From: Escherichia phage vB_EcoP_PHB20
Sequence record: MN481366.1
Reading direction: 5' to 3' (one strand)
DNA length: 38,552 bases
Shown here: one piece after another, positions 1-38,548 of the stretch
How the letters are laid out: each line of letters starts with the position of its first letter
How positions within the stretch are numbered: position 1 is the stretch's first letter
Position numbers and translations under genes: made by a program
The notes under the pieces: generated by a model
The model's database searches: none
What the model saw: the letters and a program-made list of their open reading frames with translations, nothing else
What the model was told of the DNA's origin: nothing

Positions 1-47
1 TGAAATTAGTGATACAGGTCTAAGTATCTGATTCTAGACCATTATTC

Positions 48-70
48 TAATTCGACTCACTATAGGGAGA
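48..70 (+). promoter_or_regulatory. T7 RNAP promoter, phiOR-like (right-end promoter upstream of gene 19.5)
   Basis: taattcgactcactatagggaga matches the 23-bp T7 consensus with one mismatch at -13; +1 G at 65. Confidence 0.75.
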
Positions 71-164
71 AGCCTACCTAAAGATAACTATAAGACTTAA
101 AGTGTCCTATAAGGTAGGTTGTTATTATGATTATTAATACAACCAACATAAAGGGAGGAGACTC

Positions 165-314
165 ATGTTCCGCTTATTGTTGAACCTACTGCGGCATAGA
201 GTCACATACCGCTTTCTTATGGTACTTTGTGCTGCCCTTGGTTATGCAGCTTTTAGTGGGGACCTCAGTTCGCTGGAGTCTACCGTTTGCTCTTTACTCA
301 CTTGTATTGATTAA
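165..314 (+). CDS. 19.5: gene 19.5 protein (49 aa, small hydrophobic right-end protein)
   Basis: ATG 165 preceded by aagggaggag; translation MFRLLLNLLRHRVTYRFLMVLCAALGYAAFSGDLSSLESTVCSLLTCID, near-identical to T7 gp19.5 as recalled; below the 60-aa track cutoff. Confidence 0.8.
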   Translation: MFRLLLNLLRHRVTYRFLMVLCAALGYAAFSGDLSSLESTVCSLLTCID

Positions 315-554
315 GGTCTTACTGACCGACTGATGGCTCACCGAGGGATTCAGCGGTATGATTGCATCACACCACTTCATCCCTATAGAGTCAAGTCCTA
401 AGGTATACCCATAAAGAGCCTCTAATGGTCTATCCGTAAGGTCTATACCTAAAGATAGGCCATCCTATCAGTGGAACCTAAAGAGGGTCCTAGAGAGGGC
501 CTGAGGAGTCCCTAGAGGGTCCTTTAAAATATACCATAAAAATCTGAGTGACTA

Positions 555-704
555 TCTCACAGTTTAAGAACCCAAAGTTCCCCCCATAGGGGTCCCTAAA
601 GCCCAGCCAATCACCTTGAGTCAACTTTCAGTTGACCTTGAGGGGTCCCTAAGGGTTGGGGTTGACCCTTTGGGTGTTACCTTGAGTGTCTCTTCTTGTC
701 CCCT
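555..704. repeat. Terminal repeat homolog (single copy in window; physical genome end / concatemer junction)
   Basis: tctcacag...gtgtctcttcttgtcccct aligns to the 160-bp T7 direct terminal repeat; right-end sequence lies upstream and left-end sequence downstream. Confidence 0.7.
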
Positions 705-711
705 ATCTGTT
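705..711 (+). promoter_or_regulatory. ATCTGTT element (T7 RNAP class II pause/termination signal, CJ-like) at the repeat boundary
   Basis: atctgtt directly after the terminal repeat, same relative position as the T7 concatemer-junction site. Confidence 0.5.
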
Positions 712-932
712 CACCCTCCTAAAGTCACCTCCTAAAGTCACCTCCTAAAGTCACCTCCTAAAGTCACCTCCTAAAGTCACCTCCTAAAGTCACCTCCTAA
801 AGTCACCTCCTAAAGTCACCTCCTAAAGTCACCTCCTAAAGTCACCTCCTAAAGTCACCTCCTAAAGTCACCTCCTAAAGTCACCTCCTAAAGTCACCTC
901 CTAAAGTCACCTCCTAAAGTCACCTCCTAAAG
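711..932. repeat. Tandem array of 13-bp unit TCACCTCCTAAAG (one 14-bp variant then 16 perfect copies)
   Basis: Perfect copies start at 725 and recur every 13 bp to 932; first unit tcaccctcctaaag at 711-724; no spacers. Confidence 0.95.
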
Positions 933-1094
933 CCATTCCTACCGTCTACAGCCTAAAGACCACACTTAAAGACCCATTCAGTCAATCCCTATCTTAAAGT
1001 TTCCCAAAGACCAGACCCAAAGACCATACCCAAAGCTGCCCCGTTGTTACTTATAAAGAGATCACTTTAATCATTATCTTTAATCACTCCCATT

Positions 1095-1117
1095 TAATAT
1101 GACTCACTATAGAGAGA
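1095..1117 (+). promoter_or_regulatory. T7 RNAP promoter, phiOL-like (left-end promoter, off-consensus)
   Basis: taatatgactcactatagagaga; +1 G at 1112; mismatches at -12 and +2. Confidence 0.6.
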
Positions 1118-1172
1118 TTCTACTTAAAGAGGGCCAAAGAGAGAGATTAATCAAAATAATCTTAAAAGAGTG

Positions 1173-1201
1173 TTGACTTAAAGAGTACTAGGGGATATTA
1201 T
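1173..1201 (+). promoter_or_regulatory. Host sigma70 early promoter A1
   Basis: -35 ttgact at 1173-1178, -10 gatatt/tattat near 1194-1201; aligns to the T7 A1 region. Confidence 0.7.
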
Positions 1202-1300
1202 TCATCTCGTCAACGGGACAACGGCCTAAAAGCCACTCCCTGAGATACCGGGGTCAACCGGATAAGTAGACAGCCTGATAAGTCATACGAAAAACAGGCA

Positions 1301-1330
1301 TTGACAACACGAAGTAACATGCAGTAAGAT
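1301..1330 (+). promoter_or_regulatory. Host sigma70 early promoter A2
   Basis: -35 ttgaca 1301-1306, 18-bp spacer, -10 taagat 1325-1330. Confidence 0.75.
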
Positions 1331-1407
1331 ACACAGCGTCAACACGGTAGCACGGTGTCTTCTAGGTGACTTAAGCGCACCACGGCACACAAGGTGAAAC
1401 AAAACGG

Positions 1408-1436
1408 TTGACAACATGCAGTAAACACGGTACGAT
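1408..1436 (+). promoter_or_regulatory. Host sigma70 early promoter A3
   Basis: -35 ttgaca 1408-1413, 17-bp spacer, -10 tacgat 1431-1436. Confidence 0.75.
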
Positions 1437-1554
1437 GTACCACAAGCAGTAAGGGTGTAGGGATAGGAACCGAGAAACCTGCCCGTGACCCGCCAAGGAT
1501 AAGGCACTAGCCATGAGTCGAATTCGGTCACTCATCGCATAAAAGAATAACAGG

Positions 1555-1583
1555 TTGACAGCCTCCTTTAAAAGCTGTAAGAT
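1555..1583 (+). promoter_or_regulatory. Additional sigma70-like early promoter inside a ~150-bp segment absent from T7 at this position
   Basis: -35 ttgaca 1555-1560, exact 17-bp spacer, -10 taagat 1578-1583; flanks partly duplicate the A3 -10 region (gta[c/a]gatgtaccac). Confidence 0.55.
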
Positions 1584-1704
1584 GTACCACGAAATGACGG
1601 AACAGTGAGTCACCACACTGAAAGGTGATGCGGTCTAACGAAACCTGACCAAAGATGATCTTTAACAATCTGGTAAACGGCTCTTGAGTGTACACACGTA
1701 GCAG

Positions 1705-1740
1705 ATAACTCAAGGGTATCGCAAGGTGCCCTTTATGATA
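1705..1740 (+). promoter_or_regulatory. RNase III processing hairpin R0.3
   Basis: ataactcaagggtatcgcaaggtgccctttatgat, the T7-type actcaagg...ggcc hairpin just upstream of gene 0.3. Confidence 0.6.
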
Positions 1741-1770
1741 TCCACTAACAACACTATGAGGTAACACACA

Positions 1771-2133
1771 ATGGCTATGTCTAACATGACTTACAACAAC
1801 GTTTTCGATCACGCTTACGAAATGCTGAAAGAAAACATCCGTTATGATGACATCCGTGACGCTGATGATCTGCACGATGCAGTGCATATGGCAGCTGATA
1901 ATGCCGTTCCGCACTATTACAGCGACATTTTCAGCGTAATGGCAAGCGAGGGCATTGACCTTGAGTTCGAAGACTCTGGTCTGATGCCGGACACCAAGGA
2001 CGTAATCCGTATCCTGCAAGCACGTATCTATGAGCAATTAACGATTGACCTTTGGGAAGACGCTGAAGATTTGCTGAACGAGTATCTTGAGGAAGTCGAA
2101 GAGTCTGAAGAGTACGAAGAGGACGAAGAGTAA
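1771..2133 (+). CDS. 0.3: Ocr, DNA-mimic anti-restriction protein (gp0.3)
   Basis: 120-aa [25 protein letters not shown]... with acidic C-terminus; near-identical to T7 Ocr as recalled; first gene after the A promoters. Confidence 0.95.
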
Positions 2134-6447: not shown

Positions 6448-6455
6448 CGTCACAT

Positions 6456-6478
6456 TAATACGACTCACTATAGAGGGA
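6456..6478 (+). promoter_or_regulatory. T7 RNAP promoter phi1.1A, copy 1
   Basis: taatacgactcactatagaggga; +1 G at 6473. Confidence 0.85.
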
Positions 6479-6529
6479 CAAACTCAAGGTCACTTAATGA
6501 GTGGCCTTTATTATTGACCTTCTTCCGGT

Positions 6530-6552
6530 TAATACGACTCACTATAGAGGGA
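6530..6552 (+). promoter_or_regulatory. T7 RNAP promoter phi1.1A, copy 2 (duplicated)
   Basis: Identical 23-mer; +1 G at 6547. Confidence 0.85.
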
Positions 6553-6603
6553 CAAACTCAAGGTCACTTAATGAGTGGCCTTTATGATTGACCTTCTTCC
6601 GGT

Positions 6604-6626
6604 TAATACGACTCACTATAGGAGAA
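6604..6626 (+). promoter_or_regulatory. T7 RNAP promoter phi1.1B
   Basis: taatacgactcactataggagaa; +1 G at 6621. Confidence 0.85.
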
Positions 6627-18565: not shown

Positions 18566-18591
18566 GTTATGGGTAAGAAAATCACGAAGCA

Positions 18592-18879
18592 GTGAAGAAA
18601 GTCACCAAGCCAATTACGAAAGCCGTGAAGAAAGTTACCAAGGAAGTGGCCAGTCCGATTAAACAGGTTGTAGGTGGTCTGGCTGGCGGTGCAGGTGAAG
18701 CACAGGTTGTGGAGGTCCCACAGGCTGCCACTCCTGCTGCACAGATTGGTGACATACCTGAGAAAGAGGTCTCCACCGAGGATGAAGCACAGACCGAAAG
18801 CGGACGTAAGAAAGCTCGTGCTGGCGGTAAGAAGTCCCTGAGTGTAGCTCGTAGCTCCGGTGGCGGCATCAATATTTAA
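18592..18879 (+). CDS. 7.3: gp7.3 (tail-associated), 5' end out of frame with the RBS-proximal ATG at 18569
   Basis: Body VKKVTKPITKAVKKVTKEVASPIKQVVGG...SLSVARSSGGGINI matches T7 gp7.3; ATG 18569 after aaggaggtataagtt opens MGKKITKQ then TGA at 18593-18595; body continues in the other frame from GTG 18592. Confidence 0.7.
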   Translation: MKKVTKPITKAVKKVTKEVASPIKQVVGGLAGGAGEAQVVEVPQAATPAAQIGDIPEKEVSTEDEAQTESGRKKARAGGKKSLSVARSSGGGINI

Positions 18880-36306: not shown

Positions 36307-38067
36307 GTGTCTACTCAATCCAATCGTAATTTGCTCGTTGTGGCGCAACTAAAGGGCGACTTCGTGGCGTTCCTGTTCGTCTTATGGAAGGCGTTAAACC
36401 TTCCGGTGCCCACTAAGTGTCAGATTGACATGGCTAAGGTGCTGGAGAATGGAGACAACAAGAAGTTCATCCTACAGGCTTTCCGTGGTATCGGTAAGTC
36501 GTTCATCACATGTGCGTTCGTTGTGTGGTCCTTATGGAGAGACCCACAGTTGAAGATACTCATTGTATCAGCCTCTAAAGAACGTGCAGACGCTAACTCC
36601 ATCTTCATTAAGAACATCATTGACCTGCTCCCATTCCTTGCTGAGCTAAAGCCAAGACCCGGACAGCGCGACTCTGTAATCAGCTTTGATGTTGGTCCTG
36701 CCAGTCCTGACCACTCGCCTAGTGTGAAATCAGTAGGTATCACTGGTCAGTTAACTGGTAGTCGTGCTGATATTATCATTGCGGATGACGTTGAGATTCC
36801 GTCTAACAGTGCTACTATGGGTGCCCGTGAGAAGCTATGGACTCTGGTTCAGGAGTTCGCTGCGTTACTTAAGCCGCTGCCTACTTCTCGTGTTATCTAC
36901 CTTGGTACACCTCAAACTGAGATGACTCTCTATAAGGAACTGGAGGATAACCGTGGGTACACCACTATCATCTGGCCTGCTCTGTACCCAAGGACTCGTG
37001 AGGAGAATCTTTACTATGCCCAACGTCTTGCCCCAATGCTCCGTGCGGAGTACGAGGAGAATCCTGAGGCTCTGGCTGGTACTCCTACAGACCCTGTTCG
37101 ATTCGACAGAGATGACCTACGTGAGCGTGAGTTGGAATACGGTAAGGCTGGCTTTACGCTACAGTTTATGCTTAACCCGAACCTGAGTGATGCCGAGAAG
37201 TACCCTCTGAGGCTCCGTGACGCTATCGTAGCGGCCTTAGACTTAGAGAAGGCACCGATGCATTACCAGTGGCTTCCGAACCGTCAGAACATCATTGAGG
37301 ACCTTCCTAACGTGGGCCTTAAGGGTGATGACCTGCACACCTACCACGAGTGCTCGAATAACTCTGGTCAGTATCAACAGAAGATTCTGGTCATTGACCC
37401 TAGTGGTCGCGGTAAGGACGAAACAGGTTACGCGGTGCTGTACACCCTCAATGGTTACATCTACCTAATGGAAGCTGGAGGTTTCCGTGACGGTTACTCC
37501 GATAAGACCCTTGAGTTGCTCGCTAAGAAAGCTAAGCAATGGGGAGTCCAGACGGTCGTCTACGAGAGTAACTTCGGTGATGGTATGTTTGGTAAGGTAT
37601 TCAGTCCTATCCTTCTTAAACACCACAACTGTGCTATGGAAGAGATTCGTGCTCGTGGTATGAAGGAGATGCGTATTTGTGATACCCTTGAGCCAGTCAT
37701 GCAGACTCACCGCCTTGTCATTCGTGATGAGGTCATTAGGGCAGACTACCAGTCCGCTCGTGACGTAGACGGTAAGCATGACGTTAAGTATTCACTGTTC
37801 TACCAGATGACCCGCATCACTCGTGAGAAAGGTGCTCTGGCTCATGATGACCGCTTGGATGCTCTTGCGTTAGGCGTTGAGTATCTCCGTGAGTCCATGC
37901 AGTTGGATTCCGTTAAGGTCGAGGGTGAAGTGCTTGCTGACTTCCTTGAGGAGCACATGATGCGTCCTACGGTTGCCGCTACGCATATCATTGAGATGTC
38001 TGTAGGAGGAGTTGATGTGTACTCTGAGGACGATGAGGGTTACGGTACGTCTTTCATTGAGTGGTGA
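36307..38067 (+). CDS. 19: Terminase large subunit (gp19)
   Basis: 586 aa, GTG start after taaggaggtaat; Walker A-like AFRGIGKS; near-identical to T7 gp19 as recalled. Confidence 0.98.
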
Positions 38068-38104
38068 TTTATGAGGCCAAGGAAGGCCACTTTAAGGAGG
38101 TAAT

Positions 38105-38548
38105 ATGATAAACAAGAAGAAGTATGTTGTTGATAAGGAGACTGGTTGCTGGAACTTTAAGGGATGTAAGACGAAGACTGGTTATGGTCGTATCCGTGTG
38201 AATGGTGTCCATTGGATGGCCCACAGGTATTCCCTGAGTTGTCATCTAGGCAGACCGATAGCTGACGGAATGGTTGTGATGCACCTGTGTGATAACCCTT
38301 CGTGTGTTAACCCTGAGCACCTTAAGGAAGGGACCCAGAAGGAAAACATAGAGGACTGCATCTCAAAGGGTCGCGCAACTAAGGCCACAGGTAAACGTGA
38401 TGCGTCGAAGAGAGACCCTAGCGAGGAACGTAAGGCTATAGTGATTCGTAGATACCATAAAGGCTGGAACGCAACGTCCATAGCGAGATACCATAAGCTC
38501 TCTGTGGCGTGGGTCAAGAGGGTCATTGAGGAGTACCTAAGTGATTGA
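38105..38548 (+). CDS. HNH-family homing endonuclease-like protein (147 aa), not at this position in T7
   Basis: Motif ETGCWNFKG..GYGRIRVNGVHWMAHR...VVMHLCDNPSCVNPEHLKEGTQKEN typical of phage HNH endonucleases, plus C-terminal HTH-like AIVIRRYHKGWNATSIARYHKLSVAWVKRV; SD taaggaggtaatATG; rare AGA/AGG/ATA/CTA codons. Confidence 0.85.
   Translation: MINKKKYVVDKETGCWNFKGCKTKTGYGRIRVNGVHWMAHRYSLSCHLGRPIADGMVVMHLCDNPSCVNPEHLKEGTQKENIEDCISKGRATKATGKRDASKRDPSEERKAIVIRRYHKGWNATSIARYHKLSVAWVKRVIEEYLSD

Follow-up and report, generated by a model that had tools for sequence, protein, structure and literature searches.

What is a perfectly homogeneous 13-bp repeat array doing just inside the left end of a T7-like phage genome, and is it a recent expansion, a selected binding platform, or a product of assembly? 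We addressed this question for Escherichia phage vB_EcoP_PHB20 (MN481366.1), whose entire 38,552-nucleotide record was analyzed and is referred to below as the window. Direct reading and exact matching located 16 perfect tandem copies of TCACCTCCTAAAG at 725–932, with starts every 13 nt (725, 738 ... 920). They are directly preceded at 711–724 by a boundary unit, TCACCCTCCTAAAG, which is 14 bp long and has one extra C relative to the 13-bp unit. Tandem Repeats Finder reported a period-13 repeat at 715–932 with 16.8 copies, 100% matches and a score of 436, and the longest perfect period-13 run was the same stretch of 218 nt (715–932). All three approaches agree with an earlier note on this DNA, which had described 16 mismatch-free 13-bp copies and one 14-bp variant, and the 100% match over 16.8 copies is the perfect or near-perfect head-to-tail arrangement of a variable-number tandem repeat (VNTR). 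The unit ends in CCTAAAG, a motif present 17 times within 711–932, and on the minus strand each unit reads CTTTAGGAGGTGA. Exact matching over the whole window found no TCACCTCCTAAAG on either strand outside the array. A perfect 16-copy array cannot have arisen by chance.

Several classes of element were considered for the array and set aside. Open frames within it reach 12 codons at most on both strands, and a stop codon occurs every 39 nt in all frames; coding sequence was therefore ruled out. The units are contiguous and have no spacers between them, which excludes a CRISPR array. An iteron reading was rejected; no iteron-binding initiator is known from T7-group phages. A terminator reading was rejected as well, as the scan found no terminator-like sites. 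An Rfam search of window positions 1–1800 returned no match, and folding of the RNA in the sense of the leftward promoter A0 gave weak, repeat-driven self-pairing (z = −2.5), which is no evidence of structure. The unit also resembles the T7 primase site (GTC) and part of a phage promoter (CTAAAG versus CTATAG), two similarities that were weighed as possible explanations of its sequence.

The position of the array follows from homology to T7. The window is a complete Teseptimavirus (T7-group) genome, circularly permuted and opened at an arbitrary point, and its two end bases adjoin each other in the record of Enterobacteria phage vB_EcoP_IME390. The sequence that starts the T7 genome, TCTCACAG, lies at window position 555 and opens a 150-bp terminal repeat (TR, 555–704) that ends in GTCCCCT, as T7 nt 1–160 do, its boundaries being assigned by homology. 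The TR is present as a single copy because the assembly was circularly collapsed. ATCTGTT follows directly on the plus strand (705–711), as at T7 161–167 and T3 232–238, and the order of TR and then ATCTGTT is common to T7 (TR ending at nt 160) and T3 (TR 1–231). The last T of this motif (711) is also the first base of the boundary unit. Homology to T7 thus bears out the earlier placement of the array after the terminal repeat and ATCTGTT. Because of the circular permutation, "just inside the left end" translates into genome nt 157–378, counted from window position 555.

The surrounding landmarks are those of a T7-type genome end. On the side of the right genome end lie the phage promoter φOR (48–70, plus strand; ACTCACTATAG at 55–65), positioned as in T7 upstream of gene 19.5, and the gene 19.5 homolog itself (165–314, plus strand; translation MFRLLLNLLRH..., product annotated in IME390), the last gene before that end. 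φOR reads rightward through gene 19.5, the TR and, in concatemers, the array. An ORF of 147 amino acids resembling an HNH/zinc-finger homing endonuclease (Pfam HNH_3; window 38104–38547, IME390 37251–37694) sits between the large terminase gene 19 and φOR/gene 19.5. Beyond the array, a leftward E. coli promoter, A0, was found on the minus strand at 957–985 (−35 TTGACT at 985–980, −10 TGGTCT at 962–957), homologous to A0 of T7, 13a and T3. It is followed by the phage promoter φOL (1095–1117, plus strand; ACTCACTATAG at 1102–1112), which aligns with φOL of T7 and 13a. A promoter scan placed the early E. coli promoters A1 (1173–1201), A2 (1301–1330) and A3 (1408–1436) on the plus strand. Past A3, in the region 1440–1600, there is a fourth sigma-70-type promoter-like site, TTGACA-17-TAAGAT, at 1555–1583, and the gap from A3 to gene 0.3 exceeds that of T7 by about 150 bp, which would fit the insertion or duplication of an additional early promoter.

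ATCTGTT is a class II pause and termination signal of T7 RNA polymerase, and the T7 concatemer junction (CJ) carries one such signal. The complex of T7 RNA polymerase and lysozyme paused at the CJ has been linked to terminase action, maturation and packaging. The motif at 705–711 lies on the non-template strand, as is typical of a class II site. The sequence downstream, CACCCTCCTAAAG, has no T-run and hence would not provide the U-run that efficient termination requires; a pause is therefore expected rather than termination, as at the T7 CJ. The copy at the CJ is the only ATCTGTT on the plus strand of the whole window. On the transcribed strand this single occurrence compares with about 2.4 expected by chance, and three occurrences lie on the other strand, a scarcity that would fit, if weakly, a tendency to avoid class II signals within transcription units.

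The SRL, the short repeats of the T7 concatemer junction, were reportedly described by Dunn and Studier in 1983 and have been known for about 40 years. In T7 (NC_001604), about 12 SRL units ending in (C/T)NTAAAG lie between nt 161 and 361. Judged by its sequence and surroundings, the array is the first slot of this T7-type SRL repeat region at the CJ. It lies to the right of the TR and ATCTGTT and ahead of φOL and A1–A3, and it is non-coding; its units belong to a series of 12–13-bp units that end in CCTAAAG or a close variant. A 14-genome alignment shows unit and flanks to be homologous to the SRL of Teseptimavirus, with TCACCTCCTAACG of T7 in the same column. The remaining degenerate units of the window (CCTAAAG, CTTAAAG and CCCAAAG types) occupy 933–1058, where they align with the SRL of 13 relatives. 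TCACCTCCTAACG, one degenerate copy, is all that T7 has as a homolog of the amplified unit. The array is thus absent from the T7 reference, the genome in which its presence would, according to the earlier note, have refuted the observation. The same note's remark that T7 has only a few degenerate repeats here needs correction, as T7 carries about 12 SRL units, one of them homologous to that of the array. T3 has ATCTGTT and about four SRL units with no TCACCTCC unit among them; the unit is therefore specific to Teseptimavirus.

Variation within the SRL extends to other units: 13a has ACCATACCTAAAG three times, and Tandem Repeats Finder detected a 2.5-copy array of the CCCAAAG type at window 1003–1035. 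In the laboratory-mutant T7 clones 180L, 80L and 250L (MZ375267, MZ375247 and MZ375281; nt ~140–260), one SRL unit was converted to the sequence of its neighbor and then lost, and this unit overlaps the A0 −10 region. In the same clones, 12 bp are deleted where the TR ends (CTCTCTGTGTCCCTATCTGTT to CTCTCTGTT), which removes ATCTGT and so destroys the CJ signal. Our search of the literature on SRL function found nothing directly relevant.

A megablast search revealed about 100% identity of the window to IME390 (MH779619.1, 38,396 bp, Teseptimavirus), with the next relatives at ≤95%. Outside the array, the window and the rotated IME390 genome differ over 38.4 kb by five substitutions (window 961, 5439, 23546, 35196 and 35201) and one 1-bp deletion. 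At the array itself, the window has 17 units against five and an extra C in the first unit, so that copy number differs between two close genomes that have six other differences (17 versus 5). Removing window 716–872 (157 bp, between two TCACC pentamers) yields the IME390 arrangement exactly. One such event is therefore enough to account for the 12 missing units as well as the extra C. Promoters A1–A3 sit 157 bp further from the genome end in the window than in IME390.

The other differences bear on how the two records are related. Relative to IME390, the substitution in gene 12 (23546) gives gp12 S19P, those in the tail fiber gene 17 (35196 and 35201) give gp17 K642E and N643K near the C-terminal tip, and the substitution in the RNA polymerase gene is synonymous. 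The non-synonymous changes indicate that the window and IME390 are separate lineages of one phage and not one read set assembled twice; going by so few differences, the two lineages are separated by very little time. The gp17 and gp12 changes have the look of adaptation in host range or adsorption, the genome being otherwise identical. Exact-protein look-ups aimed at independent assemblies matched gp19.5 to the IME390 record only and the gene 0.3 product to none. The 1-bp deletion relative to IME390 (18590, GG to G) frameshifts a gene 7.3-like ORF (18569–18879) at codon 8. It falls within a 33-bp tandem repeat (18580–18642), in the first copy, and a GTG overlapping the new stop could restart the original frame; in this tail protein, the frameshift reflects a sequencing error or else a genuine truncation of the N terminus.

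To place the two genomes in context, we read the CJ–SRL region in 19 further phage records and one metagenome assembly (ERZ1036441). The same 13-mer was found at the same slot in nearly all relatives read. The unit is absent from PHB19, and T7 (TCACCTCCTAACG), ESh2 and CICC 80001 have no exact unit and one degenerate copy each. One exact unit was present in EFA-2, KKE5P, ESh3 and Yep_15, two in 13a, pO111 and LNA7, three in ESh1, JB01 and PVN09, four in Pila and SYGE1, five in IME390, eight in Bas104 and nine in Bas103. The comparison of left-end repeats that had been proposed for T7-group phages thus shows the unit at one slot with a copy number that differs between isolates (0–9 exact copies). 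With 16 copies and one variant, the array of the window is the longest among the sequences read. A flanked-array search of a 50,697-record phage collection found no comparable span among the best 60 of 181 matching records, the largest being that of Bas104, and an exact-pattern scan for two tandem units found none in IMG/VR viral contigs or GTDB genomes. BLAST with the unflanked array as query gave no match, since low-complexity filtering masks the repeat. ESh1 and Pila also begin with a 14-nt unit, TCAGTCTCCTAAAG, so the boundary unit of the window looks ancestral. The distance from the CJ to φOL is 200–270 bp in most genomes, 319–329 bp in Bas103/104 and 407 bp in the window, compared with 244 bp in T7. 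In the 14-genome alignment, the array unit is as conserved as the CJ signal, with most of its columns invariant, while the flanks are about 80–88% identical. This pattern hints at some constraint on the sequence of the unit itself.

Taken together, we favor, with a probability of roughly two in three, the reading that the array is a hypervariable tandem repeat (VNTR) in the SRL, made by slippage or unequal recombination and tolerated rather than required. Slippage or unequal recombination is suggested by the perfect homogeneity of the array, the 13-bp steps among relatives and the 12-unit gap between near-identical genomes. The instability of SRL units in laboratory lines and the absence of the unit from PHB19, a viable natural phage, point the same way. 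The recent expansion by slippage or unequal recombination that had been proposed earlier is thus supported, both by the 0–9 copies in relatives and by the five units of near-identical IME390. From the structure, the SRL homology, the copy-number polymorphism and the near-identity to a five-copy genome, all of which are observed, we infer the mutational mechanism and the near-neutrality of the array.

In this mechanism, one SRL unit, TCACCTCCTAAAG, next to ATCTGTT would have been amplified to 16 perfect copies plus the boundary variant. The likely route would be slippage during replication, or misalignment of units followed by unequal recombination or single-strand annealing, with copy number changing far faster than point mutations accumulate. 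For T7 replication and recombination, Studier and colleagues, and Pierce and Masker, reportedly found deletion and duplication between short direct repeats to be efficient. Nicking or cutting of concatemers beside the array could further stimulate misaligned repair. The array would then be spacer-like DNA whose length is free to drift as far as packaging capacity allows and as the early promoters can be moved from the entering end. The first of these is no constraint here: even with a second 150-bp repeat added to its 38,552 bp, the genome stays below the 39,937 bp of T7.

Copy number is probably near-neutral, to judge from its variation. An essential role is made less likely by PHB19, which does without the unit, and by a copy number that ranges from 0 to 17. 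Wild-type infectivity was reported for an engineered T7 from which 2961 bp of the left-end region, A0 among them, had been removed, the report not stating whether the deletion reaches the TCACCTCC slot. Against neutrality stands the substitution at 961, one of only five relative to IME390, which alters the A0 −10 box at a distance of 29 bp from the array; the expansion could thus have a cost or a function.

Could the array instead be real and its count of 17, or the contrast of 17 with 5, be a product of assembly? We consider this unlikely, and several observations lend it weight. In the metagenome ERZ1036441, two SPAdes contigs stop or start inside the array, and one of them begins with exactly 55 nt of perfect repeat, the mark of a loop that assembly at k = 55 left unresolved. 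Perfect runs of 65 nt (IME390) and 64 nt (Pila) fit a single minimal loop traversal at k = 55, and the 131-nt run of Bas103 fits k = 127. The reads behind the Bas103 and Bas104 assemblies were 151 nt long, so that about 130 nt is near the resolvable limit for these two genomes. Repeat artifacts near terminal repeats have been documented in short-read assemblies of T7-like phages, and two of the differences, the extra C (CC to CCC) and the 1-bp deletion at 18590 (GG to G), look like homopolymer errors. However, the 218-nt perfect run of the window matches no common de Bruijn k. Inflating a tandem array would need reads lying wholly inside it, and a 65-nt template could not give 218 nt unless the reads were shorter than about 65 nt; collapse in the five-copy record is therefore likelier than inflation in the window. 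Collapse alone, in turn, would not have removed the unique 14-bp boundary unit, which IME390 does not have, and the non-synonymous tail-gene differences argue against one set of reads assembled twice.

Arrays of 3–9 units occur in independent isolates from several laboratories, and a wholly fictitious array is much less likely than a miscounted one. The earlier suggestion of an assembly artifact may thus apply to the exact count, whereas an array that is artifactual throughout is unlikely. These patterns suggest that database copy counts at this locus are often lower bounds. In the ERZ1036441 contig NODE-383 (nt 1–360), the sequence jumps shortly past φOL to what appears to be the acidic C-terminal end of gene 0.3. 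This contig appears to lack A1–A3 and most of gene 0.3, and is either a natural deletion variant or a misassembly.

A function at the RNA level is another possibility raised by the unit. The minus strand of the array reads AGGAGGTGA, a perfect Shine-Dalgarno (SD) core, and the plus-strand TCACCTCCT corresponds to 9 nt of the E. coli 16S rRNA 3′ tail. A leftward transcript from A0 would contain the repeat (CUUUAGGAGGUGA)n and hence 17 tandem perfect SD sequences (AGGAGGUGA), which could act as a decoy for 30S subunits in early infection; alternatively, rightward read-through by T7 RNA polymerase would produce 17 copies of the 16S 3′-tail sequence UCACCUCCU. The minus-sense unit AGGAGGUGA is complementary to the 16S 3′ end, and its predicted duplex with the tail GAUCACCUCCUUA has an energy of −15.9 kcal/mol, compared with −8.8 kcal/mol for the T7 gene 10 site. 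A0, which is annotated in T7 (start at nt 224), 13a (249–284) and T3, is conserved in 12 of 14 relatives as TTGACT-17/18-TAG(G/T)CT and points into the array. In the window it would fire leftward from a predicted start near 950, about 18 nt from the array. Its −10 hexamer is TGGTCT in the window only, versus TAGTCT in IME390 and TAG(G/T)CT in 12 relatives, owing to the change at 961 in the second position of the hexamer. This mutation could be compensation for an over-long SD decoy RNA, or it could be coincidence.

Even so, we hold such an RNA function to be highly improbable. No start codon or ORF follows any of the SD sites: the sole GTG overlaps the SD sequence and meets a stop within 10 codons, so that none lies 5–10 nt downstream, and for want of a start codon the array does not qualify as a ribosome-binding site. 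The A0 transcript of T3 does not contain the SD motif, the engineered T7 without A0 reportedly keeps wild-type infectivity, and the natural phage PHB19 does not have the unit. The Rfam search gave no match, and the resemblance to the 16S tail was noticed after the fact. A0 is, moreover, a weak promoter.

At the DNA level, the array could be a multi-site platform maintained by selection, in which the unit binds a protein such as the small terminase gp18, the terminase gp19 or the RNA polymerase–lysozyme complex paused at ATCTGTT and more sites improve end processing or packaging. The array shares its first base with the end of the CJ pause signal and adjoins the presumed right-end cut site, polymerase pausing at the CJ is linked to maturation and packaging, and the unit sequence is strongly conserved across the genus. 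Position alone makes terminase or the paused polymerase plausible candidates for proteins that the array would bind. We know of no protein that binds the SRL, and in the plasmid-packaging work of Chung and Hinkle (1990) the SRL was reportedly not found to be required. Against selection for such a platform, the unit is missing from PHB19 and degenerate in T7, copy counts span 0–17 with no preferred number, and T3 keeps ATCTGTT without a TCACCTCC unit among its few SRL units. We therefore regard a selected platform as improbable. The broader proposition that the array is functional and that its copy number matters is also distinctly improbable. It would have an A0-driven SD RNA soak up 30S subunits at the start of infection, or a putative DNA platform load RNA polymerase, lysozyme and terminase at the CJ; the A0 −10 change at 961 would then be compensatory.

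Length itself could also have been selected, with the array moving A1–A3 away from the entering left end, or the CJ away from φOL, and so adjusting the timing of genome entry or origin function. The distance from the CJ to A1 (−35) is 468 bp in the window, against 259–333 bp in most genomes and 388–399 bp in Bas103/104. According to Garcia and Molineux, roughly 850 bp of a T7-type genome reportedly enters without transcription, and A3 would lie about 854 nt from the inferred left end, at the edge of this length. On the other hand, there is no compensating shortening elsewhere, and the five-unit IME390 has a T7-like distance. The perfect homogeneity of the array indicates a very recent change rather than a maintained length. 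A length-tuning spacer is accordingly a reading to which we give hardly any credence.

On the favored reading of a tolerated VNTR, the array is a recent expansion of a known repeat, probably near-neutral, and reveals no new mechanism. The locus shows one SRL unit to be fast-evolving, with a copy number that ranges from 0 to 17 within the genus and is 5 in one and 17 in the other of two nearly identical genomes. It thereby offers a natural allelic series for probing the role of the SRL in packaging, entry and early transcription, and possibly a strain-typing marker for T7-like phages. It also flags a site at which short-read assemblies break or may under-count. Elsewhere in the window, three phage promoters (6463, 6537 and 6611) lie within a 74-bp tandem repeat at 6455–6621 (2.3 copies, 98%), which is another repeat expansion at a regulatory site. 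T7 has two promoters, φ1.1A and φ1.1B, at its primary replication origin.

Among known systems, the SRL of T7 shares with the array its position to the right of TR/ATCTGTT and upstream of A0/φOL, its 12–13-bp units and their CCTAAAG ending. It differs in composition: T7 has about 12 different degenerate units, whereas the window has one unit in 16 identical copies plus a variant and 24 units in total. The loci of Bas103 and Bas104 have the same unit at the same slot, in nine and eight perfect copies, and that of IME390 has it in five copies but without the 14-bp boundary unit. Repeats beside cut sites serve as terminase binding sites in the R sites of lambda cosB and in SPP1 pacL/pacR. These sites and the array have in common that short repeats flank a site of DNA end processing; in contrast to them, the copy number of the array is unconstrained (0–17) and its unit is absent in a natural relative. 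Contingency-type VNTRs differ from the array in that it is non-coding, lies outside any promoter spacer and has no phenotype linked to its copy number; as it is neither coding nor within a promoter spacer, no gene on/off switch is apparent. With VNTR or minisatellite loci of bacteria and viruses in general, the array shares perfect head-to-tail repeats, a copy number that differs between near-identical genomes, and assemblies that break within the repeat.
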